Below the pieces are notes generated by a model. That model was given only the letters and a program-made list of their open reading frames with translations. It was not told the DNA's origin and made no database searches. From Nitrosopumilus sp. (GTDB lineage: Archaea; Thermoproteota; Nitrososphaeria; Nitrososphaerales; Nitrosopumilaceae): a stretch of DNA of 64,000 bases. The stretch covers positions 608,001 through 672,000 of the forward strand of contig OZ241857.1 in the NCBI GenBank assembly GCA_965203315.1, written 5' to 3'. Shown in pieces: positions 1 to 50,140 of the stretch. Each line of letters begins with the position of its first letter. Position 1 is the stretch's first letter. A program made the translations under genes and the position numbers.

Positions 1-434
1 CTAGATGTAGTACCGGGCGATACTAGCTGACCCGTAGATATTGCACCACCAAGTGACGTCTGTCGTATATTGTGCGACATTGATGCAAAGAACTCTAGTC
101 GCAATAGTTTAGAGTATATCATGCCAAGTATGGACTGCTTTGGTCTTTGTACGACGATAGTCTTACCTATAGATATCTGTGGTAACCACCTAGTGTCGAT
201 ATTTGGTACAAACAACATTGCAGCACCTACACATATCACGGCTAGTGATGGTACGATATCTCCTGCAATGCCAAGTATGACACCTACAAACAGCAGCACA
301 CACGACACACCATATGTCATCTGCATCACTAGACCTATGCCTTTATCGGTACTAGATACAGTTGCGTGAGATGTGTCTGTACTACCATGTACAGCTGTCC
401 CAGATATATCCACATCAGATTTTGAACTAGCCAT
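1..434 (-). CDS. Partial membrane protein, probable FlaJ/TadC-like pilus platform protein (runs off window start)
   Basis: Open frame read by hand from ATG at 434 (MASSKSDVDISG...) overlapping the ATPase stop. Two hydrophobic segments (YGVSCVLLFVGVILGIAG; SLAVICVGAAMLFV). Function inferred only from its position downstream of the secretion ATPase. Confidence 0.45.
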   Translation of the reverse strand, partial: MASSKSDVDISGTAVHGSTDTSHATVSSTDKGIGLVMQMTYGVSCVLLFVGVILGIAGDIVPSLAVICVGAAMLFVPNIDTRWLPQISIGKTIVVQRPKQSILGMIYSKLLRLEFFASMSHNIRQTSLGGAISTGQLVSPGTTS

Positions 435-1986
435 ATTTGGACAATATCTCCATTACTTGTCTAGGTGTGTATGCATTATGTTCGATACATCGCTCCAACA
501 GACTTTTTCTATAGTATAGATCGTCTCGTATGGTACTTGACGCATCTAGTTTTGATATGTATCTCAATTTCTTACTCTTTTGTAATATGTCATTGATGTC
601 AGCACCTTCAAATGTATCAGATAGCGCGTCATATTTTGCCAAGTTTATCAACTCTATTGTTGTACCGTTCCAGTGTACCTCATCAAAAGAGATACACTTG
701 CGTATGTGTCGTTTGTCTTTACCTATTATTACTGCCATATGTAAGATAAACCAGAGATGTGCAAATGATGCAGGATGTACGTCTAATTCTGTGGTAATAC
801 GAGATACTGCAGTATCTGCAGAACTAGCATGGAAAGAGGATAGTGAGCTGTGTCCAGTACTCATCACCTCGAATAGATTTTTAGTTGATCTTCCACGAAC
901 CTCACCTACTGCAATCATGTCTGGTCTGTGTCGTAGTACGGCATTGAGTAATTCAGCAAATTTTTCAGTATATTGTGGAGATGTTATAGGTACATCGATA
1001 GATAGTGGAGACCAATCAAACTGTGGAATGGCTAGCTCGGCAGCATCCTCTATACTCATTATTTTAGATGATCTATGTAGTAAAGGAAATAGAGTATTTA
1101 GAAACGACGACTTGCCAGCACCTGTACCACCTATTATCAGACCAGTACCCCTAAAGTCCAACATCTTCCAGATTACTGCTATGACGTCTATCGGTATGAC
1201 GTTTTGTTGTAACATGTGCGATATTGTAAATGGTTTGTCTGCCTTGAGACGTATCGATAGAGACGGTACACCAGACATTGTTATCTCGTCAGATATTATT
1301 GCAACTCGATATCGTTCCCCTAGATGAAAGTCAATTATTGGATCAGAAGACGATATATGTTTGCCGCCCATTCTAGAAATACGTTCAAGAAATACGTTCA
1401 TGTGTTGTATAGTCTTGAATCGAACATTTGATCGCAGTACCTTTTGTTCTAGATAGTCTCGATGTATTACACCTACGGATGTATAATCGGAACATGTAAT
1501 GTCTTCGAGATGTTCAGAGTCTTTCATCATTGTATCAAGTATCTCGTATCCAAGGATATCTCGATTCACATAGTACTGGAATGTCTTATAGTTTCGATTT
1601 AATACGTCTAGGAGTCCTAGTTCGTCTGCCGCACTCTTTATCGATGTCATTAATTGATCTAAACTAGTATGTGTAGGATCTGCATGTAACAGCTGTTTAT
1701 AGTCCATTATTGTATCGTATGCGTGTTTATCTTGAATAGTGCGAAACTGTGGCTCTGATACCAGATACTGATGGTCTTGTGTTATTGTAACTGTCGCTGC
1801 ACCTATATCATATCTATCCAGATAGTCATGTACATCAGCTGTAAATGTGCTAGTCTCAAAGATCTCTTTGTCTGGTTTGGATTTGATCTCTTTTCCAGTA
1901 TCGTGTGTTTTATCGTTGTGTGTACCGTTATCTTGTACGGTGTCTTTGAGCTGTGACTTTCTCTTGAGTGATAACTTGAACTTCAA
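427..1986 (-). CDS. Type II/IV secretion ATPase (FlaI/TadA/VirB11 family)
   Basis: Walker A GGTGAGKSS, Asp box SIEDAAEL, LRHRPDMIAVGEVRG Walker B region, His box TGHSSLSSFHA. YYVNRDILGY...EDITC is typical of archaeal FlaI-like ATPases. Confidence 0.93.
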   Translation of the reverse strand: MKFKLSLKRKSQLKDTVQDNGTHNDKTHDTGKEIKSKPDKEIFETSTFTADVHDYLDRYDIGAATVTITQDHQYLVSEPQFRTIQDKHAYDTIMDYKQLLHADPTHTSLDQLMTSIKSAADELGLLDVLNRNYKTFQYYVNRDILGYEILDTMMKDSEHLEDITCSDYTSVGVIHRDYLEQKVLRSNVRFKTIQHMNVFLERISRMGGKHISSSDPIIDFHLGERYRVAIISDEITMSGVPSLSIRLKADKPFTISHMLQQNVIPIDVIAVIWKMLDFRGTGLIIGGTGAGKSSFLNTLFPLLHRSSKIMSIEDAAELAIPQFDWSPLSIDVPITSPQYTEKFAELLNAVLRHRPDMIAVGEVRGRSTKNLFEVMSTGHSSLSSFHASSADTAVSRITTELDVHPASFAHLWFILHMAVIIGKDKRHIRKCISFDEVHWNGTTIELINLAKYDALSDTFEGADINDILQKSKKLRYISKLDASSTIRDDLYYRKSLLERCIEHNAYTPRQVMEILSKYG

Positions 1987-2660
1987 TTCACTACACCCAC
2001 TATACCAGTAACGACAAGCCAGATTATTGCAAACGATATTGTACTGTATACAAACTGTGGATGAGCCGAAAAGACATACTTTGTAGTGTCGTCTAGTCTG
2101 TTGTCTCGACGTATGGATAGGATTATCTTGTTTGGTGTATCCACATACGATGTTGTATCTGTTGTCTTTTGAGCAGAGAGTACAAATCTATCTCTGTCAC
2201 GTCTGCGTCTAGCTAGAAAGAACCAGTATAGTTTGTGTCTAGGTTTCTGTTTGTATACATCTTGGAATAGTTGTTTATCATGTATGATATCTGATACATT
2301 GTACGATACGTTTGATAGTGTAATGCCCCATGCTTGTATAATCAGTGTCAGTATCAATATCGGCAGCCCAGTAGGAATCGGACCTATATTTGGCACTGCA
2401 AAGGATAGTATCAGGATTCCCAGTAGATCAGCTGTGCCAAAGAGTCTAGCTAGATACGCAATAAATACAAAGATGGCAGATACTCCAAACATCACAATAT
2501 CAGACACAAGATAGTCTAGTGCAAATACCATCTTGTTTAGTGCGACAAATGTAGCTAGTCCAACAAACCAGTACAACTTGATCTCTCGATGTTTGATATC
2601 CAGTACAGCAAATCCACAAAAAGCACAAAACATCACAAATGCTAGTACCTCTGAATACAT
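1983..2660 (-). CDS. A24-family prepilin peptidase (PibD/FlaK-like)
   Basis: Polytopic membrane protein with N-terminal DIKHREI and FGTAD aspartate motifs. Stop overlaps the ATPase start. Confidence 0.8.
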   Translation of the reverse strand: MYSEVLAFVMFCAFCGFAVLDIKHREIKLYWFVGLATFVALNKMVFALDYLVSDIVMFGVSAIFVFIAYLARLFGTADLLGILILSFAVPNIGPIPTGLPILILTLIIQAWGITLSNVSYNVSDIIHDKQLFQDVYKQKPRHKLYWFFLARRRRDRDRFVLSAQKTTDTTSYVDTPNKIILSIRRDNRLDDTTKYVFSAHPQFVYSTISFAIIWLVVTGIVGVVN

Positions 2661-2795
2661 GTCATGTTGAATAAAATTTGGTTTTAAGGTAGATCAAGAT
2701 GTTTTGAAATGTACTATTCTGTCGAGATTATCTCTGATGGCATTAGCGACTAGATTTAGAGATATGAAGAGTCAGAGATATCTAGTATCGAGATG

Positions 2796-3054: not shown

Positions 3055-5775
3055 TTAGTGAGTTGGATACTCTTCTATCGTCGTCTTTGCTTTGACCATT
3101 TTAGCATATTCAATTAACAGAAACTCTAGTCGCTCATCATCATCTTTGAAGGGCTCTTTACGGTATAGTCTCTCAACGGCTCTATCGAGTTTCTGATGTG
3201 CTTTGAGTAGATCTGGATACATGGTATTTGGATAGTATAGATCAGCTAGAGATGAGGTACTGTATTTAGCTCGTATATCTAGTATGTTTTGGGCGAGTTT
3301 CTCTAGTTTGTCTAACGGCTTGTTTGGAACAGGAAACGTGTTATACACTATGCCTTTCGAATATCTGAATCTGTTATCTAGTCTACCACCAATAACAGAT
3401 AACCAAACCATGTGCATCCTTGATGTCAATAGTCCAAAGAGACCCATGGTGGCATCTTGTACAATCAGAGTAGCATCACTAGGTATTATTGGCGGTTCAA
3501 CGAATCCAATTGGGACATATCTGCGGTTTTCAGAACTGACTCTAGGCACCAGCAAATATGGTTTATTTGGAATTACATTGAGATGATATAACCTTGGCGT
3601 CTCACTTAACTTTCTAGTAGTTTCATCGGGACTGTTTGCTCTGAATTCAGCTACTTTTTTGATTCTTTCTAATACTTTTGGCATACTCTTTAATTGTTTT
3701 GGAGATGTGTCATGTAATGTAAGAATATATCTCATATTGTTGTTAATAAAATCATCAGCTGATAAATATGGTCTAAGTAGATGTTTTGCGCGTGGTTCTT
3801 TTCTTAGAAATTCAATCTTTTTTTGTTTTGTGAATATATAATTTCCATCATCAATAGGCTTAGAACCCATAATCATTTTAGGTAAACCATTGATTGCTTT
3901 TGTTGAGGTTGATACGATTGGCAGTCTTGTTGATGCTTCAATCAAATATGGAGAAATGTGTGGTGTCTCTTTTACATCATCTTTGTGATATAGATATCTT
4001 GTATCATTTGGATTTTTGGATAATCCAATTATGACTACCGTTACAGCAGCTGTGTTCTTTGTTTCAGAACTCCACAAGAATGGCTTGTACGCAAAGATGA
4101 TATCTAGTTTGCAATGATCTAGAAGAATCTGCCATAACTGACCTACCTGTTCACCATGAGTGATGCTCTTTGTGCTGACGAATCCAATCTTGGTATGGTT
4201 TTTGGCATACTGCCCAGCCCTGATAAACCACCCAGAGACAAAATCTAACGTACCGCCTTTAACTTTGAATGGTTTAGTCAATTGTTTTATCTGATTGCGT
4301 TGCTCTTCTGTTGACTGTTTAGAACCACTAAATGGAGGATTACCCAAGATATAGTCACAGTCATCAGATAATAGTATATCATTCCAATCTGCAATCAATG
4401 CGTCCGTACATGTGATGTACGGTTTCTTTGATAATGGCAATCTGTATCGTGTTGGCTCAAACATTGCATTCAACTCAAGATTCATAAGATGATCCATCAT
4501 CCAGAGTGAAACCTCTGCTATCTTTGCAGAGAATCTTGCTAATTCTATGCCATAAAATTGATGAACGTTTATTTGAGATTTAATCTCAGTTGTATCGTCT
4601 AGCTGTTTTAATTTGTATAGTATCTTGTGTTCTAGTTTGCGTAACTCTCTATACGTAATTGACAGAAAATTTCCACTTCCACAAGCAGGGTCTAGAAATT
4701 TAAGACTAGATAGTTTGTGTTGTAGTTGTTTATACAGTTCTAGCTTGTTTGAATCATCAGATGTTACAATATCGTTAAATTCTTGATATAGTTGTGTCAG
4801 GAATAAGGGCCTTGTCACTTTTAGAATGTTCTCTTCCGTGGTATAGTGTGCGCCAATCTCTCTACGAGCATCTTGATCCATAACATTTTGAAACATGGAA
4901 CCGAATATCACAGGTGATACTTTTGACCAATCATAATCACTAGCTTGTATTAGTAATTTACGTGTCTCAGAGGTAAACTCTGGAAATTGAACGTCCGTGT
5001 GATCAAATAGTGCACCATCAATGTATTGGAATTGCTTGAGATTTGAATGCAAATTTTTTGGTCTACGACTATTTGGTGTATCCAAGATATCAAATAGATA
5101 TTTGAGATGCATTCCTAAATCCGAACCATCTGATTTTGTATCTTTGACATATTGCTGAAATGACTTGTGTTCAAATATTCCTGTATTGTCAGCAAATAAA
5201 CAAAATGCAATTCGAGTCAAGAAAAATTCCACAGATCCGCCTTTCTCAAAACTACCTTTCTTTAAAGAATCAAAGATGTCTGCCATTATTTCACCTGCCT
5301 TTTCATTTACAGGATCTGTCTCCACCATGTTGGGTTTGTCTACCATAAACCCAAATAGTCCAATTTTGTCTGGTAGATCTGCCAGAGTAAACTCATAGGT
5401 AGAATTATCCTCTTTGTATTGCAAATACCACTTTTCAAAATTACATGCTAGAACGAATCTAGGTATTTCATCGTATCGTAGTTTCGGATAGTATTCCAGA
5501 GCCTGTTCCATTGCTGAATACACGTCTTTGTCTTTGCTCTTCATCTCTACTAATAGTATGCCTGGCCATATCAGATCGACTCTTGTCTTATCACCATTTG
5601 GATGTTCTTCAAATTTTGCACCGACAACACGACGATTCAGACGAAATATCTCAAAAAAGTCATTTAGAAACGTTTGAGCTTCTCCTAGCTCATACTTGTC
5701 ATTTTTATGTGATTCTACAAACTCTCTAGCACGTTGTTTGGCATCAGTGTGCCAGTCCGTGGTGAGTGCCGTTAT
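3055..5775 (-). CDS. MmeI-family Type IIL restriction-modification enzyme (nuclease + N6-adenine MTase + TRD)
   Basis: LDPACGSGNF (motif I), GNPPF (motif IV), GAHYTTEENI, and an MmeI-like C-terminus. The frame stays open 77 codons upstream of the annotated ATG (5544) and encodes EAQTFLNDFF...VDLIWPGILLVEMKS, the MmeI nuclease domain. The only start-like codon there is ATA at 5775. Confidence 0.9.
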   Translation of the reverse strand: MTALTTDWHTDAKQRAREFVESHKNDKYELGEAQTFLNDFFEIFRLNRRVVGAKFEEHPNGDKTRVDLIWPGILLVEMKSKDKDVYSAMEQALEYYPKLRYDEIPRFVLACNFEKWYLQYKEDNSTYEFTLADLPDKIGLFGFMVDKPNMVETDPVNEKAGEIMADIFDSLKKGSFEKGGSVEFFLTRIAFCLFADNTGIFEHKSFQQYVKDTKSDGSDLGMHLKYLFDILDTPNSRRPKNLHSNLKQFQYIDGALFDHTDVQFPEFTSETRKLLIQASDYDWSKVSPVIFGSMFQNVMDQDARREIGAHYTTEENILKVTRPLFLTQLYQEFNDIVTSDDSNKLELYKQLQHKLSSLKFLDPACGSGNFLSITYRELRKLEHKILYKLKQLDDTTEIKSQINVHQFYGIELARFSAKIAEVSLWMMDHLMNLELNAMFEPTRYRLPLSKKPYITCTDALIADWNDILLSDDCDYILGNPPFSGSKQSTEEQRNQIKQLTKPFKVKGGTLDFVSGWFIRAGQYAKNHTKIGFVSTKSITHGEQVGQLWQILLDHCKLDIIFAYKPFLWSSETKNTAAVTVVIIGLSKNPNDTRYLYHKDDVKETPHISPYLIEASTRLPIVSTSTKAINGLPKMIMGSKPIDDGNYIFTKQKKIEFLRKEPRAKHLLRPYLSADDFINNNMRYILTLHDTSPKQLKSMPKVLERIKKVAEFRANSPDETTRKLSETPRLYHLNVIPNKPYLLVPRVSSENRRYVPIGFVEPPIIPSDATLIVQDATMGLFGLLTSRMHMVWLSVIGGRLDNRFRYSKGIVYNTFPVPNKPLDKLEKLAQNILDIRAKYSTSSLADLYYPNTMYPDLLKAHQKLDRAVERLYRKEPFKDDDERLEFLLIEYAKMVKAKTTIEEYPTH

Positions 5776-5881
5776 GGGACACCCCTAGTCAGAAATTTGT
5801 TATCTGCTGTATGATACTTTATGGCTACGGAGGTTAACGCAACTGGTTTATTGTTTGACATCAGACAACAACCCGATTGTA

Positions 5882-6688
5882 TCAACCTGTATTATCGCGT
5901 AGTTCCAGATTCTCGGTCTCTAGGTCTTCGATCTTTTTCTTGGCATCGTTTAGTTCTTGAGTAAGTTTCTCTATGGTAAGTTGTTGTTCATTAGAAGTTG
6001 TGTTCATGATTTGATACAGTCGTTGCAGTTCAGATAGTTCATCTGTGATTCTATCTTTGTCATCATTACAAGCTCCATGTTTGTTCTTGAGTTCTTTATT
6101 CTTGTCTTTGAGTTTCTGGATTTGTTCATTAGATACTGATTCTGTTCTATCTGGTTGATTGTTTGGTGTCAAGTTGAATGTTCTTGAAATAAGATTTATG
6201 ATTTCTTGTTTCGTTAATTTTGTTGTTTTTAATTGGTTTGATTCATCAGGAAAATTCCATGTTATAGGTTTAAGCCGCATCATATCCGTAGTATATTTAC
6301 CGTCGATATAATCACCTACATTTCCACACAATGGGTATCCGTTATTATCACCAAATCCTCCAATACTCATATAATCAGGAATAATCACACCATGAAAATG
6401 AATAATATCCTTTTTATCACCTCTGGCAAGATCATAATCACCAACAACCTTTACTCCTTCATGTTCACTATGTTCAAAATGGTTTCTAAAGAAGTTATAG
6501 GAGGTTTCAATCTGCGTTATATTAACAAAATGAATATATCTAGATGTAAACTCTATTGTACTTGTATCACATGTGGATATTATTAATCCTAAATCTACTT
6601 CTTGATATGATTCTGCTTCAGCGTTATCGACTAGACCCATAACTCCAATAAGAGATACTACAGCAAGACCCAAGATTAGAACATTCAT
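5882..6688 (-). CDS. Secreted protein with C-terminal coiled coil (paralog family with 35378-36358 and 55172-55555)
   Basis: Signal peptide (MNVLILGLAVVSLIGVMG...AEA) and heptad-rich tail LTIEKLTQELNDAKKKIEDLE. Confidence 0.75.
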   Translation of the reverse strand: MNVLILGLAVVSLIGVMGLVDNAEAESYQEVDLGLIISTCDTSTIEFTSRYIHFVNITQIETSYNFFRNHFEHSEHEGVKVVGDYDLARGDKKDIIHFHGVIIPDYMSIGGFGDNNGYPLCGNVGDYIDGKYTTDMMRLKPITWNFPDESNQLKTTKLTKQEIINLISRTFNLTPNNQPDRTESVSNEQIQKLKDKNKELKNKHGACNDDKDRITDELSELQRLYQIMNTTSNEQQLTIEKLTQELNDAKKKIEDLETENLELRDNTG

Positions 6689-6896
6689 TCTTACTTTTGA
6701 GAGATATGTCTGGTTATAAAAGTATGTGATTTTAATGATTGATTAGTGAATGAGAGATTAGTTGATCTCGAATGATCTCACCATATGAATGACATTCAAA
6801 GTAGCGTTCTCATATCTCATATTTTACAATCTTTCATGCTTAAAAACACAGTTCAAAGATTACACAGAATCGACACTCAATGCTTGACAGTCTGTT

Positions 6897-7694
6897 TCAT
6901 TCTTGTTCTGACTTTTCAGCCTTTTTGATGAGTTGCTCAAGTTCCTTAGCACGATGGAAAGATGGATCTAACTCAAGTACAATATTTATTGCCTCTGTTG
7001 CAGGTTTTGTTTGTCCAAGGGCATGTAACGCCGCAGCAAGAGTGTACAATGTTGGTAGATCATAGGCTTCCAGGTTGGTCACTTTTAAGCAGAGATCATA
7101 TGCTTCTTTGAATCTGTCTAGAAAAGTAAGTGCAAATGCTTTTTCTGCCAACAACCTAGCATCATCTGGCTTGATCAACAATCCCTGATCATAACACTCT
7201 AGTGCTTGCCCATATTCTCCGAGATCAATCATGATCTTTCCTTTATCGGCATACAGACCCGCATTAGCAGGATCTTCCAATGCTTTATCATAACAGTACA
7301 GTATAGACTCTACAAGTTTTTTGTCATTGGATTGGATATAAAGATGATGTAATGATGATCCTTTTATGGCATATGTAGTAGGATCTGCCATACCATTTTG
7401 CGTTGCTATGTCGATCCACTCTACTGCTTTATCATATATGCCACATTTGTGTAGCAAGTTTGCTTTATGAAGTGCCAACACTGGCGCAATAATACCATCA
7501 GCGTATCTCAATGACTTGTCAATGCATTTTATTGCTTGAGGGTATCTCTCAAGGTCCTTATAGCAGAATGATTTGACAAGATACAGTGCAAAATCTCCAG
7601 GATTTGTGTCTAGAGCTTTATCACATGCCGCCAACGCTTCTTCATATTTGCCTTGGTTCTCCAATCTGAATATGTTGTCCAATGATGGGTCCAT
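6897..7694 (-). CDS. Tetratricopeptide repeat protein
   Basis: Repeated TPR consensus (GKYEEALAACDKAL, GEYGQALECYDQGL). True start is probably ATG 7694 (MDPSLD), because the longer ORF runs into a TGTACA-repeat region. Paralog of 8111-8998. Confidence 0.85.
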   Translation of the reverse strand: MDPSLDNIFRLENQGKYEEALAACDKALDTNPGDFALYLVKSFCYKDLERYPQAIKCIDKSLRYADGIIAPVLALHKANLLHKCGIYDKAVEWIDIATQNGMADPTTYAIKGSSLHHLYIQSNDKKLVESILYCYDKALEDPANAGLYADKGKIMIDLGEYGQALECYDQGLLIKPDDARLLAEKAFALTFLDRFKEAYDLCLKVTNLEAYDLPTLYTLAAALHALGQTKPATEAINIVLELDPSFHRAKELEQLIKKAEKSEQE

Positions 7695-7890
7695 GTCATT
7701 ACTCAGTAAACTTACAATATTTCTTAAACTCACAAATATCGTCCCTTGGCTTGACTTTAAAGTCTTTTGTAAATTGTACATTTGTACAAATAGTACATTT
7801 GTACATATTGTACATGACATGTCAGAGTAATGTACCGTCAACAGGAATGAAGACTAGATTGTGTAGACTTTTCTTGGCAATCTGTACATA

Positions 7891-8091
7891 TACCAAAGTA
7901 CAAAAGTATCTTCCAATATGGCAATCCAAGAAACCATACATGTTTGTGAATATATACATCTTGTAATGACGGCGCATGTGTTATTTCTATAGGTAAAGAT
8001 TGTTCAAATGATGTCTTTTTGATTTCCGTAAGTAGATATTACGCACATACTAGTCTACGATCTAGTAGGAGAATACTTTTGCACTTTAGTA
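7891..8091. mobile_element. MITE (201 bp) of the IS630 family
   Basis: Terminal inverted repeats taccaaagtacaaaagtat / atacttttgcactttagta match the IS630 at 47281-48561, with TA on both flanks. Interior is homologous, in inverted orientation, to 63471-63681. Confidence 0.88.
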
Positions 8092-8110
8092 TAGAATAAA
8101 AATGTTTGAT

Positions 8111-18965: not shown

Positions 18966-19012
18966 GTTATTTCATCTGTATAAAGACATAAAAACATTCT
19001 GAAATCACACAG

Positions 19013-41424: not shown

Positions 41425-41457
41425 GCTAGTATATCTCCAATACTGCGTTAAGAGATA

Positions 41458-41973: not shown

Positions 41974-42004
41974 GTATTGATATCTAGATACATTGTACGG
42001 TAAG

Positions 42005-42475
42005 TCAAGAGAGCTCTTTCTTGATCCGCTCTGATTCTATAAACTTTACAAACGGCTCCATGTTATACTGGACTAGTGTCTTATTTACTGGATTGCCGAT
42101 ATAGTTCAACACCATATCCCGATATCTCTTGCGTGTACATGCCGATGATGTATGTACGTAATGTTTTATAGTATTATTCAATAACATGGGAGTCACAAAA
42201 GGGTATGATGGAAGTCTCTCCAACGCATCACTGATCCTCCTCAACTGTGCTAGTGTATTTTTATACAGTGGTTTACTAGGAGACTCTTGTATCGATACAT
42301 GTGACATCATGTACATCTCTAATGCATATTCAAGTTCTCTGCCATACACATTCTTGATTGTACCATACCTTGAGAGAAGAAAGTTGTGCCATTTTTCTTT
42401 AATCTCTGCGGATATCTTGGTCGATATGCGACCAGTACGGCGTTCTGGTTTATGACTATTCTTTGTTTCTGTCAT
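42005..42475 (-). CDS. Hypothetical DNA-binding protein (ribbon-helix-helix-like N-terminus)
   Basis: RISTKISAEIKEKW...YG...VYGRELEYALEMYM pattern. Lies between MCM and GINS. Confidence 0.5.
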   Translation of the reverse strand: MTETKNSHKPERRTGRISTKISAEIKEKWHNFLLSRYGTIKNVYGRELEYALEMYMMSHVSIQESPSKPLYKNTLAQLRRISDALERLPSYPFVTPMLLNNTIKHYVHTSSACTRKRYRDMVLNYIGNPVNKTLVQYNMEPFVKFIESERIKKELS

Positions 42476-42559
42476 GATTTATTGTATGTAATCTATATCT
42501 CCTGTTGGATACAGTATGCAGAGTACATATTGATAACATGTTATGGTAATGACTGAAAA

Positions 42560-42852
42560 TGAAAACACATAACATTTGACGAATGTTGTCCATATGCATC
42601 CAGACATAAAATTCTAGGCACGAGATCCACATCTGTATAGTTTTTTGATGTATTTTTTTATTCAATTTGTGTATAAATGTGGAATGTCTGTATCGTTATA
42701 TGGTTTCTGACGTCAGCTGACGTTATTCTTGGATATTTCCTGAAACAGTTCATTTTTGGTTGGTCTTTTGGGCATTTTTGTTCAGAACCACGCCTAGAGA
42801 TTCTCATCTCGGAATGTTTTTTCGTCCGTGTGTCAAATGTCATATGTTTTCA
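42560..42852. other. Inverted 21-bp repeat pair flanking an AT-rich stretch and a central palindrome; candidate replication origin
   Basis: tgaaaacacataacatttgac (42560-42580) matches the reverse complement of 42832-42852 at 19/21 positions. Palindrome acgtcagctgacgt at 42710-42723. Immediately downstream of MCM. Confidence 0.4.
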
Positions 42853-42935
42853 AAAGTTTTTGCCATTCTTTTGTACATCTGGATGATAATACGATGTTAC
42901 TCAATTTGTACATAAACATAAACTGCTTATGTACT

Positions 42936-45089
42936 TTATACAGAAGCAAATTTGCCCGGCGATGTCTCGTAGAGTAGGTTCTCTTGAAACATTTTGTGCA
43001 AGAAATCTCGTGCAGTATCATCATCCCACTTTGTGCTCTTGATCATCTCGCTTATGATCTCTTGTTCTGATACACCGTCAGAGAACTGTGGCGCAATGCC
43101 TTGCATGATATCACGGAATAGATTCATTCTAGATACCATACTTGCAGGTTTGCCACGTTGTACTCCAAAGTCAACCTTGCCCGTGTTTACGTCTACTCCG
43201 CTGGTCTTTAACATCTCGTCTAGTATGTGGATGGCACGCTCTGCGTCATGTATGTCAGCAGTATCTTTTAGCAGAAATTTTGCCCTGGCAATGGTCAGTC
43301 GAACTAGTCCTTCTAGTTGTCGTACTGTTATGGTGAATCCAGACTCGGCATCCTCTGCACGTCTCATGTTTAGATAGTACTGTATGATCTTTGATTCAGC
43401 TGATCTAGATATCTTGGGTTTGAGGCGTTTTGCAATACGCAGATACTTTGCAAAGTCATCTATGTCTATGGGTGTGTGTATTCGATCATGCTCTAATCTA
43501 TGTGACGACATTACATGTTTGGCAATCTTTGTGTCTCGTTCTATAGATGGTATATCACGTACGACAAATATCATGTCAAATCTAGTCAATAGTGGTACAG
43601 GTATAGACGTTACATTCTCTGTTAGATTTCTATATGGATCATACTTGCCGTATGTAGGATTTGCGATTGCAACTACTGACGTTCTCGTGTTCAGACTAGC
43701 TGTTATTCCTGCTTTGGATATACTGGCTTGTTGTTGTTCCATTACCTCATGGAGTGCTGCTCTATCTTTGGTCTCCATTTTATCAAATTCGTCTATTATG
43801 ACCAACCCTTGATCAGCGAGAGCAGTAATACCAGGGTCTAGCATCCATGTTTGAGTTACCTTGTCTTGTACTACTGCTGCAGTCAGACCAGCTGCAGATG
43901 AACCTCGACCTGATGTGTAAAATGATCTTGGTGCAACTCGGTATGTTGCTTTACCCATCTCACTTTTCGCAGTACCTGGGTCACCTAGAATGAATATGTT
44001 GATATCGCCACGAATTCTAGTACCGTCTGATAGTATGTGAGGATTAGCTCCAATCATCGTCAATATCAGAGCCTCTTTGATGAGTGTATGTCCTTGGATG
44101 TGACTAGCAAAAGAGGATATTATCATGTTTGTAGCGTTTGTCTCGTTGTTATTTTTTATCATCTTGCTTATTCGCTCTTTGTCATCACTTGTTATCTCGC
44201 CACCAAAGTCATTCTCGTTGGATAACCGTCGTATGTGGTTTGCGTATAGTCTATGTCTGTATGTTTGAACAGGCACTCCTAACTTTATCTCCTTTGACAT
44301 CTCTGGACGAATCATACCTGATATCTCTACTGTATCTCCCATACGCGCAGTATCCACTAGATCACCTGCTACGAATACACCCAAAGTTTTAGGTAGTTTT
44401 CCAGCTGGTAGTTCATTTGGTAGTTCTTGCAACTGTAGTATCTGATAATCGACAAAGGTAGACTCTTTTGGATTTAACTCAAACTTGCGACTCTTGCATC
44501 TGTCGTTTTCACATATTACTGGTACAGACATGGTATAGTTCTTGTCTGCTTGAATACTAAACACATGACCTTCCTCACATCTGTATACAGCCTTGACGGG
44601 TATGGCCTCGATTGCACTCATGCGGATCAGCATCGCTTTTATCGTCACGAACTGACCAGAATTGTCGCTGTTTATCTCACGAACTCCAAGTATATTTGGA
44701 TAGTTCGACATACGTACAGATATCTTGTCACGTATATCATCAGCATAGTCAGGAAATCGTTGTCGTAATATTTCGTATACTGCTCTTGCAGCTGCTGTAA
44801 GAAAGATGTCCGAGTCTTGCTGAAACACATATGCGATATCATCATCTAGAGCAAAGTCCATGTAATTCATCGTCAATGATGTCTTGTTAGCAGATGGCAT
44901 CAAATCTATCGCATTAACGTATACGTATTCTCCACCTAGCTTGTAATTCTGCATGAACTGTTTTATCACATCTGCTAGTCCAGATTTGGTATAGTCTATA
45001 CTGGTATCCGATTTGATACTAGATTTGATACTAGTATCTTTCACACTAGTATCTTTCACACTAGTATCCTTCACACTAGTGTCTTTCAT
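42936..45089 (-). CDS. mcm: MCM replicative helicase
   Basis: Zn finger (C.EGH...CEN.RC), GDPGTAKS Walker A, IDEFDKM Walker B, LLTRFD arginine finger, ITVRQLE sensor 2, C-terminal wHTH. N-terminal (KDTSV)n repeat. Confidence 0.97.
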   Translation of the reverse strand: MKDTSVKDTSVKDTSVKDTSIKSSIKSDTSIDYTKSGLADVIKQFMQNYKLGGEYVYVNAIDLMPSANKTSLTMNYMDFALDDDIAYVFQQDSDIFLTAAARAVYEILRQRFPDYADDIRDKISVRMSNYPNILGVREINSDNSGQFVTIKAMLIRMSAIEAIPVKAVYRCEEGHVFSIQADKNYTMSVPVICENDRCKSRKFELNPKESTFVDYQILQLQELPNELPAGKLPKTLGVFVAGDLVDTARMGDTVEISGMIRPEMSKEIKLGVPVQTYRHRLYANHIRRLSNENDFGGEITSDDKERISKMIKNNNETNATNMIISSFASHIQGHTLIKEALILTMIGANPHILSDGTRIRGDINIFILGDPGTAKSEMGKATYRVAPRSFYTSGRGSSAAGLTAAVVQDKVTQTWMLDPGITALADQGLVIIDEFDKMETKDRAALHEVMEQQQASISKAGITASLNTRTSVVAIANPTYGKYDPYRNLTENVTSIPVPLLTRFDMIFVVRDIPSIERDTKIAKHVMSSHRLEHDRIHTPIDIDDFAKYLRIAKRLKPKISRSAESKIIQYYLNMRRAEDAESGFTITVRQLEGLVRLTIARAKFLLKDTADIHDAERAIHILDEMLKTSGVDVNTGKVDFGVQRGKPASMVSRMNLFRDIMQGIAPQFSDGVSEQEIISEMIKSTKWDDDTARDFLHKMFQENLLYETSPGKFASV
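45027..45086 (-). repeat. In-frame 15-bp tandem repeat encoding KDTSV/KDTSI x4 at the MCM N-terminus
   Basis: cacactagtatcttt units read directly. Confidence 0.92.
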
Positions 45090-45891
45090 ACTCTTTGTAT
45101 CGTTTCACAAAGTTACGTAATGCCATGGTTGTTACACCAGCTGCACTAGATATTGTATCTTGTTTGATAGATTTACGACATACAAGGTAAATTATTCCAG
45201 CAGCACATACACCAGGATGTGATATTACACCAAAAGGACAGCTAGCCAGTATGTCAAACATCTTGTTTCGTGTTTTGTATGATATGTCAAGAATATTACA
45301 TGCCTTGTTGATTCGAATCTTTATGTTGTTACGGATATCATATGTTATGTTCCATCTCTGTAACATGTATCGATATACTCTACGCGTAGATCTCTTGTTT
45401 ACATTTGCTTGGTCCATTATCTCTGTCTCTTTTATGACTCGACCATGTCTCTTGCATGCAATCATTACACATGCTACAGATACTTGATCGAGACGTCTTC
45501 CGTGTGTGAGTCCCTCACGGATTGCACGTCTTGCAAGGACTTTGGCTTCAGTCGCGATGAGCGTGGTTGCGCCTAACCTACCTAGTAGAGCGTCTAACAA
45601 TTTGTATGTCTTGACGAATCTCCTATCGATGCCTTGAACTTGTAAAGAGTTTGAGATAGTTTTATCACCTATCTTTGTAATTGGTTCACTACCTAGTCCA
45701 TTACCAAGTATTATATCACTAGTTTGTATGACAGAGTCACTTACATCTGATTCGACCATTCTAGACTCGATTATTACGCCGCATTTGCTGCACAATATCT
45801 CGCCTTGTTTTATGTCAGATATCAGCTGGGGCGTATTACAGTAACAGTATCGTTTCATTTTACACAAGAGTGTAGATGACCGTTTCTGCAC
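45076..45891 (-). CDS. tfb: TFIIB/TFB-like transcription initiation factor paralog
   Basis: CYC...D...GEILCSKCGVII Zn ribbon and two cyclin repeats (GLTHGR...VACVMIACK; P.VCAAGIIY...Q..IS.AAGVT..ALRN). Overlaps the mcm start. Confidence 0.85.
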   Translation of the reverse strand: MQKRSSTLLCKMKRYCYCNTPQLISDIKQGEILCSKCGVIIESRMVESDVSDSVIQTSDIILGNGLGSEPITKIGDKTISNSLQVQGIDRRFVKTYKLLDALLGRLGATTLIATEAKVLARRAIREGLTHGRRLDQVSVACVMIACKRHGRVIKETEIMDQANVNKRSTRRVYRYMLQRWNITYDIRNNIKIRINKACNILDISYKTRNKMFDILASCPFGVISHPGVCAAGIIYLVCRKSIKQDTISSAAGVTTMALRNFVKRYKEYERH

Positions 45892-45989
45892 ATGTGTGAT
45901 ATTCTAGTCATGGTGTATTCGCGTTGGTTTTTGTTTATGTGTAATGTTTCAGGCATGTATGATTGCATGATAATGACGACCGACTAGTT

Positions 45990-46439
45990 TCATCTCTTGT
46001 TGTCAAATAACATCTGCATATTAGATGTTTGAGAATTGTGGTTTTCAGTCTGTTTGTGGTTACGTTTAGGATCGTACTTTTGGTTGTATATGCCAGCACT
46101 AGCTAGTCTGATCAATGTAGATGATGATGCTGTACCTGTGAGTTTACCAATCTTGTCCTCTCTTTGTACAAGATCCCAGTGAAGTTTTGTGCGTCCACTC
46201 TTTGATCTGTAGAATATATCCAAGACGCCTTTTGCAGATATTATTGTGTACTCTGGTGTTTCAGATATTGTACACTTGTCTATTGCTCGAACGTGTATCA
46301 ATGATTTGGATTCGCGTTCTAAAAATATTGTAGTATCTTTAATGTATATTTCGGGAATGTCATCGTATATAGACAAAAGAAACCTACGAAATACATCCAG
46401 AGATATCATGATAGTGATCTTGGTTTGAACTCTCTTCAT
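45990..46439 (-). CDS. Hypothetical protein
   Basis: ATG-initiated ORF co-oriented and upstream of tfb. No recognised motif. Confidence 0.55.
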   Translation of the reverse strand: MKRVQTKITIMISLDVFRRFLLSIYDDIPEIYIKDTTIFLERESKSLIHVRAIDKCTISETPEYTIISAKGVLDIFYRSKSGRTKLHWDLVQREDKIGKLTGTASSSTLIRLASAGIYNQKYDPKRNHKQTENHNSQTSNMQMLFDNKR

Positions 46440-46475
46440 GTGTAAAACCCTCGATCAGAACTTTGTATAGGATGT

Positions 46476-46549
46476 GTATATGGCGTATGGTATATGGCGT
46501 ATGGTATATGGCGTATGGTATATAGCGTATGGTATATGGTATATGGTAT
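46476..46549. repeat. Tandem repeat, 14-bp unit gtatatggcgtatg x4, then gtatatg x2
   Basis: Read directly, one mismatch in the fourth unit. Intergenic, upstream of the tfb-mcm genes. Confidence 0.93.
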
Positions 46550-46588
46550 CACCATGTTGGATCACATTGCCCGTGTAATCTAGATTAT

Positions 46589-46888
46589 TCAAATTTTCAT
46601 ATTGGAAGAAAATCCTCGGCATAGACGGACGAACAACCTCATAATTCCGAGATTGCGTACCAGTATGTTCGCCCGCATGTAATATGCTTTGAACTTGCTG
46701 ATCTTCTTTGAAATCTGTGTGATACAAGCGACGCTGCAGGATTGACCTGGCAGAGCCCGTACCTTGTACCTCGCAAATCTATCACAGGTATTACCTGCCA
46801 GTTCTGATGAAAAGGTACCATACGGTTGGTCTAGACCAACTTGCCCCTCGATATGGTACGATCGATTAGTGAGATGTTTGGTACACAT
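46589..46888 (-). CDS. Hypothetical protein (99 aa)
   Basis: ATG at 46888 overlaps the upstream stop (TAATG) and follows a GGAGG motif. Confidence 0.5.
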   Translation of the reverse strand: MCTKHLTNRSYHIEGQVGLDQPYGTFSSELAGNTCDRFARYKVRALPGQSCSVACITQISKKISKFKAYYMRANILVRNLGIMRLFVRLCRGFSSNMKI

Positions 46889-47280
46889 TATTGGTGCACC
46901 TCCAATAGTTTGACTACATTGTCTTGGATTGTAATCTGCTTGTTTAAGATCATCTGTGGTAGAATACAAGCTAGTACCTGCGATGTACATTCTATAGCAA
47001 ATGTCTCGTATAGTGCATCTAGTGTAATTTTTTGAGTATTGTCGTATGTCAATAGAGTGAATATCATGCGTTGTAGCGATGTCTTTAACTCTCGGTCTAG
47101 TCGCTCTTGAATGTCTGCAGTCTCGAGTTGATATTGTTGTACCTTTTCAGATATTGCGGTACACTTGGACATCTTTATGCATACTTTGCATCGAGTTGAA
47201 CCAAACTGTGTATGTGGTTTGTATGTGTAAATGTCATCACCGATCTTTGCTGTACCACAGATACTGTCTAGTCCAATATA

Positions 47281-48561
47281 TACCAAAGTGCAAAAGTATT
47301 TTCCACGATTTGACAATAAATTACTCTAACCGAAACCTTTATCGATCAGATGTTTTTCTGTATTTGTAATGGGCACACACTTTCAAGGATTAATGGAAGC
47401 GTTTCAAAAAGAAAAAGATGATACCAGTTTCTCAAAAAGAGCGTTGGCGGTAATACTAGTCAAAGTTAAAAAAATACCTATAGACGAAGTAGCAGAAATA
47501 TTTGGTTGTGTACCAAAAACGATAAGGAACTGGTTAAATCGATACAAGGAAAGAGGCATCAATGGCTTGAGAGATCGTCCAAAAACAGGTAGACCAAGAA
47601 AGATTTCCAAGTTGCAAATTTTAGCAATAGTTTTGCACATGCCCCAAAAACACCCAATCATCATAAAACGAATTATCTATGATCTAACAAAAATCGAGTA
47701 TTCTGTGTGGAGCATTAGAAGAGTATTACGTGAATTGAAGCTTACCCGAAAGAAGCCCAAGCCATATTACATAAATCGAGCTAGTGCAGAAGACACTCAA
47801 ATATTTCAAGATAGAGTACTTTTAAAAATACAAAAAGCAAAAAGAAAAGGCATACCAGTATTTGTTTGTGACGAAGTCCAAGCCAATTATGACGACAATT
47901 GTAACTATATGGTATGGGAGTTTAAATGGAAAGATGCACGTGTTCCATACGTAAACCAATATGAAAGTGTCAGATACTTTGGAGCTCTTGATTCAGACGG
48001 CAATCTATTTACAATACAATATGAGGATAATTTTACAGCAGATATGTTTAGGATATGTTTGAACATGCTTTACGACAAATGCGGTAAATTTATGATAATA
48101 GCAGATGGAGCTAAAGCACATACTGCAAATAATGTCAAAGAGTTTTGTGAAAAGAAAGGAATAGACCTAGAAATTCTTCCTGCTGGACGTCCAGAACTCA
48201 ATGCAATAGAGACAATATGGTACATGGGGAAAAAGGAACACGTAAATGGCAAGTTTTATCCAGATCGTAGAGAATTAGTGTCAAAACTCAATGAATTTTT
48301 TAGTCAAAAATTCGATATTGACCTAGTAAAATACTTGAAAAGAAAGGTTGATGACTAGTAAACAGTCGCAAATCGATCATAATATGGATATACAAGACAA
48401 TTGCATGAACTTTAATAATTACAATCTCATCTTTCGTTTAAATTAACTAACTCTTTATCAATTTCTTAGTTAAGTAATAGACAAACAGAGTGGCTTGGAA
48501 ACAAAATTTAGACCAATACGTTTTGGGACACAGTTTTGGAAAATACTTTTGCACTTTGGTA
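47281..48561 (+). mobile_element. IS630-family insertion sequence, 1281 bp
   Basis: Perfect 25-bp TIR taccaaagtgcaaaagtattttcca / tggaaaatacttttgcactttggta, with TA duplication. Confidence 0.95.
47369..48358 (+). CDS. IS630-family transposase
   Basis: HTH (TIRNWLNRY...GL.DRPKTGRP), catalytic CDE, ADGAKAH, PELNAIE.IW. Confidence 0.95.
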   Translation: MGTHFQGLMEAFQKEKDDTSFSKRALAVILVKVKKIPIDEVAEIFGCVPKTIRNWLNRYKERGINGLRDRPKTGRPRKISKLQILAIVLHMPQKHPIIIKRIIYDLTKIEYSVWSIRRVLRELKLTRKKPKPYYINRASAEDTQIFQDRVLLKIQKAKRKGIPVFVCDEVQANYDDNCNYMVWEFKWKDARVPYVNQYESVRYFGALDSDGNLFTIQYEDNFTADMFRICLNMLYDKCGKFMIIADGAKAHTANNVKEFCEKKGIDLEILPAGRPELNAIETIWYMGKKEHVNGKFYPDRRELVSKLNEFFSQKFDIDLVKYLKRKVDD

Positions 48562-48610
48562 TAGTAATGTGTATCTAGTATATTGTCATCTTGTACACGA
48601 GATATCCAGT

Positions 48611-48922
48611 TCATTGTACAGCCACCTCACAATCTAGACAACGACTTCTACCATACAGATACACATACTCTTGACCCGTAAGATATCCTGCTTGGTACAC
48701 CTGTGCTAGTATGTCATGTGTTGGACCATCTGATATCTCTGCTACGAGTTGTTTTATCTGCTGTAATGATATTTGTACAAAGTCTGCATCTATTGGTTCT
48801 CTGCCATAAATGTAATAGTCTCTCTCGTCTGATATGAAACGAGTCAACTCTGAAATACACTGACCACTAGGGAGACGAGATATCATCTCTAGATCATTTG
48901 TAGATATCTTTATAGACATCAT
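48611..48922 (-). CDS. Hypothetical protein
   Basis: Start and stop codons overlap the neighbouring genes on both sides. Confidence 0.6.
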   Translation of the reverse strand: MMSIKISTNDLEMISRLPSGQCISELTRFISDERDYYIYGREPIDADFVQISLQQIKQLVAEISDGPTHDILAQVYQAGYLTGQEYVYLYGRSRCLDCEVAVQ

Positions 48923-49095
48923 GTATAGTCCTCCACAGTTAGATTACACGTGGGCCGTTCAGATTTTTTCATAGACTCTAGTATCTGTTGTATTTTAGGT
49001 AAAGTGTGATCATCTTTACGAGATGTGATGCGTAAATATTCATGAATACGTACTAGCTCGTGATACTCTAACGATATTGTGTGTACTCTAGTCAA
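48919..49095 (-). CDS. Small hypothetical protein (58 aa, below the ORF-track cutoff)
   Basis: MTRVHTISLEYHELVRIHEYLR... exactly fills the gap, with TTGA and ATGA overlaps at its two ends. Confidence 0.6.
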   Translation of the reverse strand: MTRVHTISLEYHELVRIHEYLRITSRKDDHTLPKIQQILESMKKSERPTCNLTVEDYT

Positions 49096-49589
49096 AGAAA
49101 CTCCTCCCGAAATAATGCAGTATTGCCTTTGATGTTGCTACTTTGTATGTCCGAGTGTGCTGCAAGGTGTTCCATAGGATCATCCAGAGTCATTCCACAT
49201 ACACATGTAACAAGAACACGTGTGTTGGAGTGGTGTCGTTTACATCCGCCCGTTGCCATAACATCTCTTTGACATTGTAGACATTCCATCTCGATATCTT
49301 TTAGAAACGATTCACAAGTCTGAGATAGATCGTAGACATTGCTCTGTTCATTAAAGAGATATTTTATGCAGACTAGGACCTCTAGATTTTTTCTGTATAC
49401 TGTTTGTAGAGATCTCTTGCCGTTACTAACACATGTGATTTTATCAGCCGTACCGCCAATCTCTTCAATACTCTCTTCAGATCTGTCTCGGTTTGGTTTT
49501 ATTACTGGGATATATCCTAGACTTTTATACATTATTCTATACAACTTTGGGTTGTTGCAGTATTGATGGATCACTTTTTGTTCGCTCAT
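49092..49589 (-). CDS. Hypothetical protein with C-terminal Cys/His zinc-binding cluster
   Basis: CLQC...C..HH...CVCG...HLAAH. Confidence 0.6.
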   Translation of the reverse strand: MSEQKVIHQYCNNPKLYRIMYKSLGYIPVIKPNRDRSEESIEEIGGTADKITCVSNGKRSLQTVYRKNLEVLVCIKYLFNEQSNVYDLSQTCESFLKDIEMECLQCQRDVMATGGCKRHHSNTRVLVTCVCGMTLDDPMEHLAAHSDIQSSNIKGNTALFREEFL

Positions 49590-50140
49590 TTTGTGCCTCC
49601 ATAGTGTGTCTGATAGATGTGATCTAGAGTGATCTCGGCTGCCTTTTCGTTTGCTACACGTTGATAGTTTTGTGGACTCTGCTCCAACTGATCAATCTTG
49701 ATCAAAAAGTAACACACAGCTGCTCTAATCACAATACTGCGAATCGTAGTGACCTTGGAGTTTGGTATGTATCCATCCTCTTCTAATCCCTGGAATATCC
49801 GTTGAACCAAATCAGACGCTACGATCTTGTTGACTATATGAATGGCAGACGGAGTAAGACCAGTAGATATGCTCGTCATGTGCTTACTCCGTCTATTGAT
49901 CTTGTGTTTATGGTCTGGTACGAGATCTCGATATATCTCTGCTAATAGTTTGTCTGTAGATATTCGATTACCACATCGGCGTAGGATCTCAATCTCTTGA
50001 AGTCTTGGCAACTCTTCTAGGAATAGAGCGATTGCACAACGTATCAAGGTGCATTTGTTGAAGGACAGTCCAATCTCATATAGACGCGCAAATACTTTAG
50101 ACTCTGCAATTACTCGATCAATAATGACACTACTGTTCAT
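49586..50140 (-). CDS. Putative DNA-binding regulator with two RHH-like helices; first gene of the operon
   Basis: Internal repeat KCTLIRCAIALFL / RSIVIRAAVCYFL resembles RHH helix 2. Confidence 0.5.
   Translation of the reverse strand: MNSSVIIDRVIAESKVFARLYEIGLSFNKCTLIRCAIALFLEELPRLQEIEILRRCGNRISTDKLLAEIYRDLVPDHKHKINRRSKHMTSISTGLTPSAIHIVNKIVASDLVQRIFQGLEEDGYIPNSKVTTIRSIVIRAAVCYFLIKIDQLEQSPQNYQRVANEKAAEITLDHIYQTHYGGTK

Follow-up and report, generated by a model that had tools for sequence, protein, structure and literature searches.

What kind of genetic element fills most of a 64,000-nucleotide stretch of Nitrosopumilus sp. DNA that combines replication genes with a type IV pilus module, and does it still have the means to move? 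The stretch, here called the window, corresponds to positions 608001-672000 of contig C1 in genome G000, a chromosome contig of 1,940,504 bp in an assembly of 2.47 Mb, seven contigs and 38.6% G+C that contains the archaeal amoA gene. An earlier note, made from the letters of the window alone, took positions 1-50140 for the backbone of a large replicon of undescribed kind, encoded almost entirely on one strand and free of ordinary metabolic or translation genes. The last two observations hold, as 54 of the 56 open reading frames (ORFs) taken from this part lie on the minus strand and neither metabolic nor translation genes are among its Pfam matches. We assign a probability of roughly 0.8 to the reading that the first 50-55 kb or so of the window constitute one half, that for replication, partition and the pilus, of an integrated thaumarchaeal-type integrative and conjugative element (ICE) in the chromosome of an ammonia oxidizer. 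Judged by gene content, the family to which it belongs matches the published signature of thaumarchaeal ICEs, as given in the main text of PMC6563490, and its kind is thus not undescribed.

The family became apparent when the pilus ATPase was searched against 151 genomes of the genus. Close orthologues (44-54% identity, E <= 6e-128) are encoded in six of the 150 other genomes (G161, G009, G154, G135, G164 and G144), and a further 51 genomes gave matches of 26-35% only. In five of the seven members (7/151 genomes with G000) an extra gene for the replicative helicase MCM is linked to the block; in G009, G135, G144 and G164 it is on the same strand as the ATPase gene and 15-62 kb away from it. 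G161 and G154 have chromosomal-type MCM only, and neither MCM nor TFB is encoded in the G161 stretch upstream of its 297-aa gene. All of 24 other genomes of the genus that were surveyed for MCM carry the chromosomal type (46-48%); a full extra MCM was seen among them only in G009 (60%), and G024 has a 383-aa piece at 56%.

Gene order is shared as well. The segment G009:C1:130097-160520 is collinear with G000:C1:583840-653891, beginning with the platform protein, the ATPase, the putative peptidase, a 930/1044-aa protein, pilin-like proteins, the ParB-like and the TFIIB-like protein and continuing with the nuclease, a 285/298-aa protein, a 151/156-aa protein, MCM and TFB. It follows that the block reaches beyond the left end of the window by 24 kb or more. 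It occupies 70 kb in G000 and 30 kb in G009, a difference caused by restriction-modification (RM) genes, insertion sequences (IS) and repeat families in G000. Pilus and replication modules are collinear in four other genomes, which upholds the earlier note's idea of a self-transmissible-type backbone uniting both. Genes for VirB4-like and VirD4-like ATPases share the pilus block in G009, G135, G144, G164 and G154, and a trio of genes for 244-, 566- and 687-aa proteins is present in these five and in G161, where the stretch examined stops short of the VirB4/VirD4 position. The blocks of G009, G144 and G164 include a gene for a TBP-like protein, those of G009 and G144 also an actin/ParM-like gene.

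The members in G009, G144, G161 and G164 sit within chromosome-sized contigs of 2.0-2.2 Mb. The G009 copy is contained in an insertion of 131 kb, the flanking genes of which are separated by 1.5 kb in G000, and Phage_integrase genes are located inside it at 168922-170634 and 184192-185526, one of them 8 kb beyond TFB. Mobility of the family is supported by this insertion. Between copies, element proteins are 24-60% identical, compared with 59-89% for flanking core genes (G009 vs G000). A profile of the 285-aa protein family run over broader genome contigs returned three loci, all in the same genus (G161, G144 and G164), a result that says little on the range beyond the genus because the copies in G009 and G135 were missed.

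VirB4 and VirD4 are absent from the window, as the earlier note stated, but G000 possesses one VirB4-like and one VirD4-like protein, encoded about 155 kb away. Their genes are part of a region, C1:438-501 kb, that reads on the plus strand in the order found in G009: the 244-566-687 trio (438.2-443.3 kb), VirB4, VirD4, the TBP-like gene and small SNase-type genes. The actin-like gene in this region is on the minus strand, and its counterpart in G009 likewise opposes its neighbours. Since each core protein of the G009 element has a single match in G000, the two parts in G000 are complementary.

What separated them can be read base by base. A 1505-bp IS of the IS6/IS240 type is present at C1:430004-431508 and at C1:578127-579631 in 100% identical, inverted copies. 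In the frame of the IS, TGTGAGG ends the left flank of the first copy and starts the right flank of the second, and CTCAACT starts the right flank of the first and ends that on the left of the second; two 7-base agreements at set positions would arise by chance with a probability of about 4e-9. As controls, two more copies of this IS, at C1:1510541-1512040 and C6:38562-40063, have 7-bp duplications of their own, and two further full copies have none. Both duplications at the inverted pair are restored only with C1:431509-578126 (146,618 bp) flipped, and this segment was therefore inverted by homologous recombination between the identical IS copies. With the segment restored, the trio and VirB4/VirD4 come to follow directly upon a 286/724-type gene (C1:583.8 kb) in the same strand orientation, which is the arrangement of G009. 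Host genes were inverted along with it, among them that for the proteasome alpha subunit. One half of the element, with VirB4/VirD4, now runs from C1:431.5 to about 501-518 kb and the other, with pilus and MCM genes, from C1:579.6 to about 658-663 kb, so that excision of the G000 copy as a single piece is probably precluded until the inversion reverts. A methylase fragment at C1:579535-580476 was considered as a gene cut by the IS and rejected; the portion that it lacks, the N-terminal one, is on the opposite side.

The outer ends of the element are approximate because the host flanks are far apart or scattered in relatives. On the right, the end falls between window 50140 and 55575. The edge of the G144 element has an orthologue (42% identity) of the 184-aa ORF at 49586-50140, and the ABC-2 transporter gene at 55575-57412 belongs to the host core, being situated directly beside a PRC-barrel gene in G012 and G009; in G000 the PRC-barrel gene follows 7 kb away, on the far side of a type III RM system. 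The VirB4/VirD4 half has its outer end between C1:501 and 518.7 kb, giving a span of about 150-173 kb once the inversion is flipped back. The host blocks at C1:549.6-563.5, 518.7-523.6 and 672-692 kb are at least 130 kb apart in G012, G021 and G009, and in G000 the genes found behind the ABC transporter gene of G012 and G009 are dispersed. G+C content is flat across the window (0.34-0.41) and yields no compositional border. The limits of 1-50140 proposed earlier were thus close on the right and too narrow on the left.

The genes called TFB, MCM and GINS23 in the earlier note all have Pfam or NCBIfam matches, that of Gins23 lying below the cut-off. The TFB gene overlaps the start of the MCM gene by 14 bases, and TFB orthologues are also found upstream of MCM in G009 and G144. 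The MCM protein has the N, OB, AAA+ and lid domains (Pfam) with intact Walker A (GDPGTAKS), Walker B (DEFDK) and arginine finger (TRFD) motifs; with an NCBIfam score of 613 bits at a cut-off of 940 bits, it is a divergent member of its family. G000 contains three MCM genes. The chromosomal one (C1:876695-878761), which adjoins a Gins23 gene, and that on contig C7 encode proteins 47% and 53% identical to the window copy, whereas the element copies of G009, G135, G144 and G164 reach 58-60%. Searched with tblastn against 72,556 plasmid and 50,697 phage records, the window MCM found best identities of 31% and 29%, all matches being euryarchaeal or from Altiarchaeum.

A quick IQ-TREE phylogeny (LG+G4, SH-aLRT supports only) was calculated for 38 MCM sequences, 25 chromosomal ones from the genus, seven from other families of the order and the six extra copies; short or partial G005 and G023 sequences were excluded, and several further matches are not part of it. 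All six extra copies fall together (SH-aLRT 100) on a stem of 0.86, as sister to the chromosomal clade of the genus, and the window copy groups with that of C7 (SH-aLRT 86). Thus, the window gene is one of three copies and falls into a separate, long-stemmed clade; it is neither the sole MCM of the genome nor part of the chromosomal clade, and the refutation that the earlier note had set out for its reading fails. The topology agrees with acquisition from a host resembling Nitrosopumilus and rapid change thereafter, within the limits that long branches and thin outgroup sampling set to naming a donor.

In archaeal replisomes, Gins23 partners directly with MCM. The window copy covers positions 1-158 of the 159 of the NCBIfam model at 100.8 bits (cut-off 120 bits) and is most similar to the chromosomal copy of G000 at C1:878784-879272 (56% identity). 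A Gins23 match is present in 144 of the 151 genomes, and G009, G135, G144 and G164 each have just one, beside the chromosomal MCM. The extra Gins23 is therefore peculiar to G000. Next to it is encoded a 271-aa protein with a linker rich in S, T and N and a conserved C-terminal helix pair, for which the earlier note had proposed an annealing recombinase. The proposal is weakly supported. The N-domain of RAD52 tops the Foldseek results for an AF2 model (pLDDT 70) with a probability of 0.99, an E of 5e-3 (none <= 0.001) and a TM score of 0.27-0.39, RAD52 entries as a whole ranging from 0.98 to 0.99 in probability and from 0.25 to 0.50 in TM score, and its neighbours in the language-model Atlas are Rad52_Rad22 and SSAP_Sak (0.83). 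Pfam, PHROG and NCBIfam gave no match and PDB profile matches are at chance level. The protein is probably a Rad52-like annealing protein as far as the predicted fold goes. Homologues are encoded in the G144 element and on contig C7. The latter (53,622 bp) is tailed-virus-like, with N and C pieces of a T4-type terminase, an 887-aa protein with a LAGLIDADG domain, a 3328-aa ORF (C7:27333-37319), methylases and a PD-(D/E)XK nuclease; the 193-aa homologue of the window protein is at the contig end.

The partition gene and the second TFB called in the earlier note also found support. The ParB-like protein has no Pfam match, and in a PDB profile search ParB comes out on top at E 0.076; an AF2 model built with five orthologues (pLDDT 68) retrieves ParB/Noc/KorB in Foldseek at E 2e-6, with 34 matches at E <= 0.001, by which the assignment as ParB-like is confirmed at the level of predicted structure. 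The TFIIB-like gene overlaps the start of the downstream ParB-like gene by 8 bases, its product has an invariant CxxC...CxC pattern, and the pair recurs in G009, G135, G144, G164 and G161. The TBP-domain protein of the family is encoded a few genes downstream of VirD4 (G000:C1:466838-467338, Pfam TBP E 8e-11; G009:C1:112726-113283, E 3e-6). Together with the two TFIIB-like genes, it would give the family a full set of basal transcription initiation factors. The surface nuclease of the earlier note is borne out by its SNase match, a PHROG endonuclease match (E 2e-10) and hydrophobic segments at both termini.

Of the pilus genes, those for ATPase and platform are type IV pilus parts supported by NCBIfam. 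The ATPase, recognized as such in the earlier note, matches NCBIfam FlaI at E 2e-61 with a score below the model cut-off and has its Walker A motif at residue 286. The platform protein (666 aa, about ten transmembrane helices judged by hydrophobic segments) matches UpsF at E 7.6e-20 and BasF at E 3.5e-8, and its orthologues (35-56% identical) adjoin the ATPase in six genomes. The prepilin peptidase is less firmly placed. In the language-model Atlas it neighbours Peptidase_A24 clusters (score 0.90), six orthologues have two Asp, D21 and D78, without exception, and there are five hydrophobic segments, but Pfam, NCBIfam and PDB gave no match (the PDB profile search returned zero), and it is a probable A24-type enzyme. 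For the two pilin-headed proteins of the earlier note, N-terminal hydrophobic segments were found and nothing beyond these, which points weakly to pilin-like proteins. The 1044-aa protein has no match in Pfam, PHROG or NCBIfam. The 163/415-aa family features a conserved S(Y/F)TNE motif, and orthologues of the 409/415-aa proteins occur in G009, G135, G144 and G164.

Several observations weigh against an ICE. There is no integrase near either half in G000, where the two Phage_integrase matches of the genome are located at C1:412469 and C1:1468056. No tRNA target and no att repeat was found for this copy, though no search aimed at att repeats was made, and an empty site could not be reconstructed for it with flanks placed in G009, G002, G021, G018 and G012. 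No relaxase was found; Krupovic 2019 (PMC6563490) states the same of thaumarchaeal ICEs and Sulfolobus conjugative plasmids. The MCM tree has long branches and seven outgroups, with no other genus of the same family sampled, and most family-specific element proteins are without a known family in Pfam, PHROG and NCBIfam scans. Finally, transfer has never been shown for any thaumarchaeal ICE, judging from the passages on these elements in PMC9905601.

The missing integrase and the splitting of the G000 copy by an inversion that encloses host genes such as that for the proteasome alpha subunit would also suit a domesticated, host-owned island for DNA exchange or adhesion, resembling the chromosomal Ups and Ced systems of Sulfolobales. 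The core ORFs have remained intact despite the split, including the MCM motifs and the Walker A of the ATPase, and the VirB4-like protein matches NCBIfam CedB (E 2e-15) just as the platform protein matches UpsF. Nevertheless, we consider such an island unlikely, as the family is sporadic, occupies differing chromosomal places, in G009 within an insertion equipped with integrases, and diverges far more between copies than core genes do; furthermore, partition and replication genes are not needed by a chromosomal system. The same genes, i.e. own MCM and Gins23 as well as ParB-like and actin-like genes, are what an autonomous megaplasmid would carry, and the IS copies at the border could have misled an assembler into joining it to the chromosome. 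This we regard as very improbable. On a contig of 1.94 Mb, the block is located at 608 kb and has core genes of the host on either side, the exchanged 7-bp target duplications link the element with host DNA across the IS copies, and four other members are also embedded in contigs of chromosome size, all of which goes against the separate replicon suggested in the earlier note. Just as little credence can be given to a provirus replicating by MCM. MCM-bearing archaeal viruses do exist and the closest partner of the window MCM in the tree is on tailed-virus-like C7, but no capsid, portal, tail or terminase protein is among 32 element proteins compared with PHROGs, and the window, its flanks and the G009 element lack Pfam matches to capsid, portal, tail or terminase, in line with the absence of capsid genes from the window already reported. 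Moreover, VirB4/VirD4 and a pilus indicate conjugation.

For the integrated ICE that we prefer, the following life cycle is conceivable. In an intact member, a tyrosine integrase would excise the element, and its TFB, TFIIB-like and TBP-like factors would turn on its operons. MCM, in G000 possibly with its own Gins23, would recruit the host replisome to copy the circle, which ParB-like and actin-like proteins would partition. FlaI-like ATPase, UpsF-like platform, A24-like peptidase and pilin-like proteins may build a pilus that holds mating cells while VirB4/VirD4 move the DNA, and the Rad52-like protein and the membrane nuclease may process it. Going further, the family could represent a distinct archaeal conjugative lineage with its own start-up kit for transcription (TBP-like and two TFIIB-like proteins) and replication (MCM, once also Gins23), the intact members of which (for instance in G009 or G144) would, once excised, be replicated like plasmids and pass from one marine ammonia oxidizer to another via a pilus-assisted VirB4/VirD4 channel. 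We put this forward tentatively and hold it to be rather doubtful as a whole.

Table 1. Features of the window and the VirB4/VirD4-like genes of the second half in G000 (coordinates refer to the window unless preceded by G000:C1)
Feature	Position	Strand	Basis or remark
TadC/UpsF-like pilus platform protein, 3' part	1-434	-	whole ORF G000:C1:606434-608434
FlaI/PilB-like type IV filament ATPase	427-1986	-	Pfam T2SSE E 4e-27
5-TM protein, probable A24-type prepilin peptidase	1983-2660	-	Peptidase_A24 language-model neighbours
MmeI-type (IIG/IIL) RM enzyme, cargo	3055-5544	-	five MmeI Pfam domains
Coiled-coil protein and two TPR proteins of multi-copy genome families	5882-8998	-	
1044-aa pilin-like or adhesin protein, N-terminal hydrophobic helix	9285-12419	-	conserved in family
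N4/N6 DNA methyltransferase, cargo	13356-14411	-	Pfam N6_N4_Mtase E 4e-47
Three tandem copies of a 166-aa + 204-aa gene pair	14572-19238	-	84-91% DNA identity between copies
Two conserved secreted or pilin-like proteins, 409 and 415 aa	19013-21578	-	signal/hydrophobic N-termini
ParB-like protein	21719-22648	-	AF2 and Foldseek
TFIIB-like protein, Zn ribbon and cyclin fold	22641-23291	-	PDB profile TFIIB E 7e-4
Membrane-anchored SNase-like nuclease	23556-25028	-	Pfam SNase E 1.5e-4
Family-specific 285-aa protein and 213-aa protein with weak wHTH matches	24976-26471	-	orthologues
Type ISP RM gene, split by IS	27468-33904	-	Pfam Type_ISP_C
Four small ORFs, 44-112 aa, each with two CxxC pairs	38693-40291	-	
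271-aa protein, probable Rad52-like single-strand annealing protein	40609-41424	-	fold search
Extra Gins23 copy	41458-41973	-	NCBIfam Gins23 E 6.5e-29; Pfam Sld5 E 4e-6
156-aa protein conserved next to MCM in family	42005-42475	-	
Extra MCM helicase	42936-45089	-	Pfam MCM E 2e-80
TFB	45076-45891	-	Pfam TFIIB E 6e-12; NCBIfam TFIIB E 8e-23
Operon of unknown proteins	45990-50140	-	no family matches; IS630-family element inside
IS630-family element within unknown operon	47267-48563	+	100% identical to C1:780060-781345
Right border zone: small ORFs, MITE-like repeats, DUF6036 nucleotidyltransferase pair, IS	50141-55574	.	
Type III RM system, Mod and Res	58059-63295		between host ABC-2 transporter and PRC-barrel gene
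VirB4-like ATPase	G000:C1:449156-450985	+	NCBIfam VirB4 E 1e-36; Pfam AAA_10 at cut-off
VirD4-like ATPase	G000:C1:450918-453623	+	NCBIfam VirD4 E 3e-7; TraG-D_C over cut-off

RM systems, IS and repeat families have swollen the element in G000, and about 16 kb of them had been overlooked in the earlier gene list. The MmeI-type enzyme matches its Pfam domains at E 5e-81 and weaker and PADLOC REase_MTase_IIG at E 4e-282. The coiled-coil and TPR genes that follow are absent from the G009 element, and the N4/N6 methyltransferase has a 76% identical copy in the G135 element. Each member of the 166+204-aa pair has 27-37 tblastn matches genome-wide; the 1.45-kb unit is scattered at about 25 other places in G000 with 65-90% DNA identity. 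Its 166-aa protein matches the PADLOC candidate system PDC-S70 (E 4e-12), its 204-aa protein nothing. The Type ISP gene is broken into 29774-33904 and 27468-28304, with Type_ISP_C positions 1-197 and 197-338 on separate pieces, by an IS at 28292-29788 that encodes a DDE_Tnp_4 transposase and shares 99.9% identity with C1:1582537-1584034. Elsewhere in G000 there are four or more other Type ISP paralogues. A contig from run X4 of an independent study joins 28292 to 29789 and lacks the IS, and as only 25 letters remain on its shorter side it may derive from a paralogue. The type III RM system outside the element has a 54-60% identical paralogue at C5:308252-313600.

Among the remaining genes, those for the 285-aa and 213-aa proteins have 36-45% identical orthologues in five genomes; the 213-aa protein gave HTH matches at E 0.02-0.16 only. 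Where the earlier note saw many tiny Zn-finger ORFs, four with two CxxC pairs exist, which is not many, and its operon of unknowns (50140-46589) does consist of unknown proteins but is interrupted by the IS630-family element. In the border zone, a 355-aa gene and the DUF6036 nucleotidyltransferase gene (51323-52886) recur as a 91% identical second copy at C1:257108-258753 and as matches of about 68% DNA identity in G009 and G021; the pair may be a small mobile or toxin-antitoxin-like cassette. MITE-like repeats of about 185, 190 and 215 bp are found at 51076-51256, at 52904-53095 and at 7888-8093 and 63468-63684, respectively, the first having more than 70 copies on C1, C5 and C6.

No tRNA gene was detected in the window by a tRNA scan and no Rfam family matched there. 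The tRNA scan likewise found none in the 390 kb of G000:C1:327,595-718,538, a region dense in IS and RM genes. Within it, C1:405125-413701 contains genes for a cysteine desulfurase, a DUF4007 protein, a 1112-aa protein and a PAPS reductase, a set which we take to resemble a DNA phosphorothioation system of the Ssp/Dnd type; it adjoins the gene for a 545-aa protein that gives one of the two Phage_integrase matches of the genome. In the G144 element, five tandem wHTH-type units are fused in a 955-aa ORF (C1:1279339-1281708) and five tandem 378-aa-type genes are each accompanied by a 126-aa-type gene (C1:1336725-1345159). Contigs from three sequencing studies cover window 38000-46500 and are 100% identical where they overlap, with no RNA run among those listed for it; they carry no information on excision, inversion or copy number.

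The Nitrosopumilus group drives marine nitrification. To our knowledge, there is no genetic system for its ammonia-oxidizing archaea, and few of their mobile elements have been described. A conjugation apparatus combined with a host-derived MCM, in one genome also with a second Gins23, amounts to a natural experiment on the capture of replisome parts and offers candidate replication and transfer modules for vectors, while the split copy documents how IS recombination strands a large element and how RM cargo builds up. If intact members do transfer, they would be the first natural gene-transfer vehicles in the group and a route to genetic tools. The kind of element is already known, and our results extend the view of archaeal mobile elements without overturning it.

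The closest known counterparts are the thaumarchaeal ICEs NCAV2-E1/E2, NitIsl-E1-3, NitEve-E6, NitGar-E3, NitVie-E3 and NitNCS1-E3 (PMC6563490). Like the present family, they are described in the main text of that study as encoding VirB4/TrbE and VirD4/TraG homologues, a TadC-like protein, an ATPase of the FlaI/PilT type, a prepilin peptidase and pilins, as having a TFIIB gene immediately upstream of a ParB gene, a coupling called specific to these elements, as lacking a relaxase, and as being large (median 64 kb) and carrying inserted IS and RM genes. Differences concern replication, for which that study names PolB, Cdc6/Orc1, UvrD-like helicases, topoisomerase IA and primpol-S3H; MCM is mentioned for cryptic elements only, whereas our family has TFB-MCM, in G000 with Gins23. 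GINS, TBP, TATA, Rad52, actin and ParM do not appear in that main text, unlike the TBP-like, actin-like and probable Rad52-like genes found here, and the hosts named in its passages on ICEs are Nitrosocaldus, Nitrososphaera and Nitrosotalea, not Nitrosopumilus, although its supplementary tables may list more on both counts (PMC6563490). Measured against this text, an ICE with a TFB-MCM (and Gins23) module is new, as are the TBP-like, actin-like and probable Rad52-like genes and the Nitrosopumilus host. Our literature searches retrieved no description of such an element in Nitrosopumilus, and a 2023 paper, in its passages on conjugative elements of Nitrososphaeria, cites only the 2019 study (PMC9905601).

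More distant parallels exist. Plasmids and viruses with MCM, such as the pT26-2 family and haloarchaeal tailed viruses, have likewise recruited a host-type MCM that sits on a long branch, but the present clade branches beside the chromosomal MCMs of Nitrosopumilus. Sulfolobus conjugative plasmids (pNOB8, pING family) are episomal and reside in hyperthermophilic Sulfolobales, and we know of no type IV pilus module or MCM on them. Shared features are a ParB-type protein, the pNOB8-like ParB-N structure 5k5d being among the Foldseek matches of the window protein (E 3.9e-4), and, as far as described in PMC6563490 and PMC9905601, the VirB4/VirD4 pair without relaxase. The Ups pili and the Ced system of Sulfolobales, whose UpsF and CedB models are matched by element proteins, also combine cell contact by a type IV pilus with DNA movement by a VirB4-family ATPase; they are, in the account of PMC9905601, chromosomal host systems that import DNA, whereas the genes described here share a sporadically distributed block, carried by an insertion, with genes for partition and replication.

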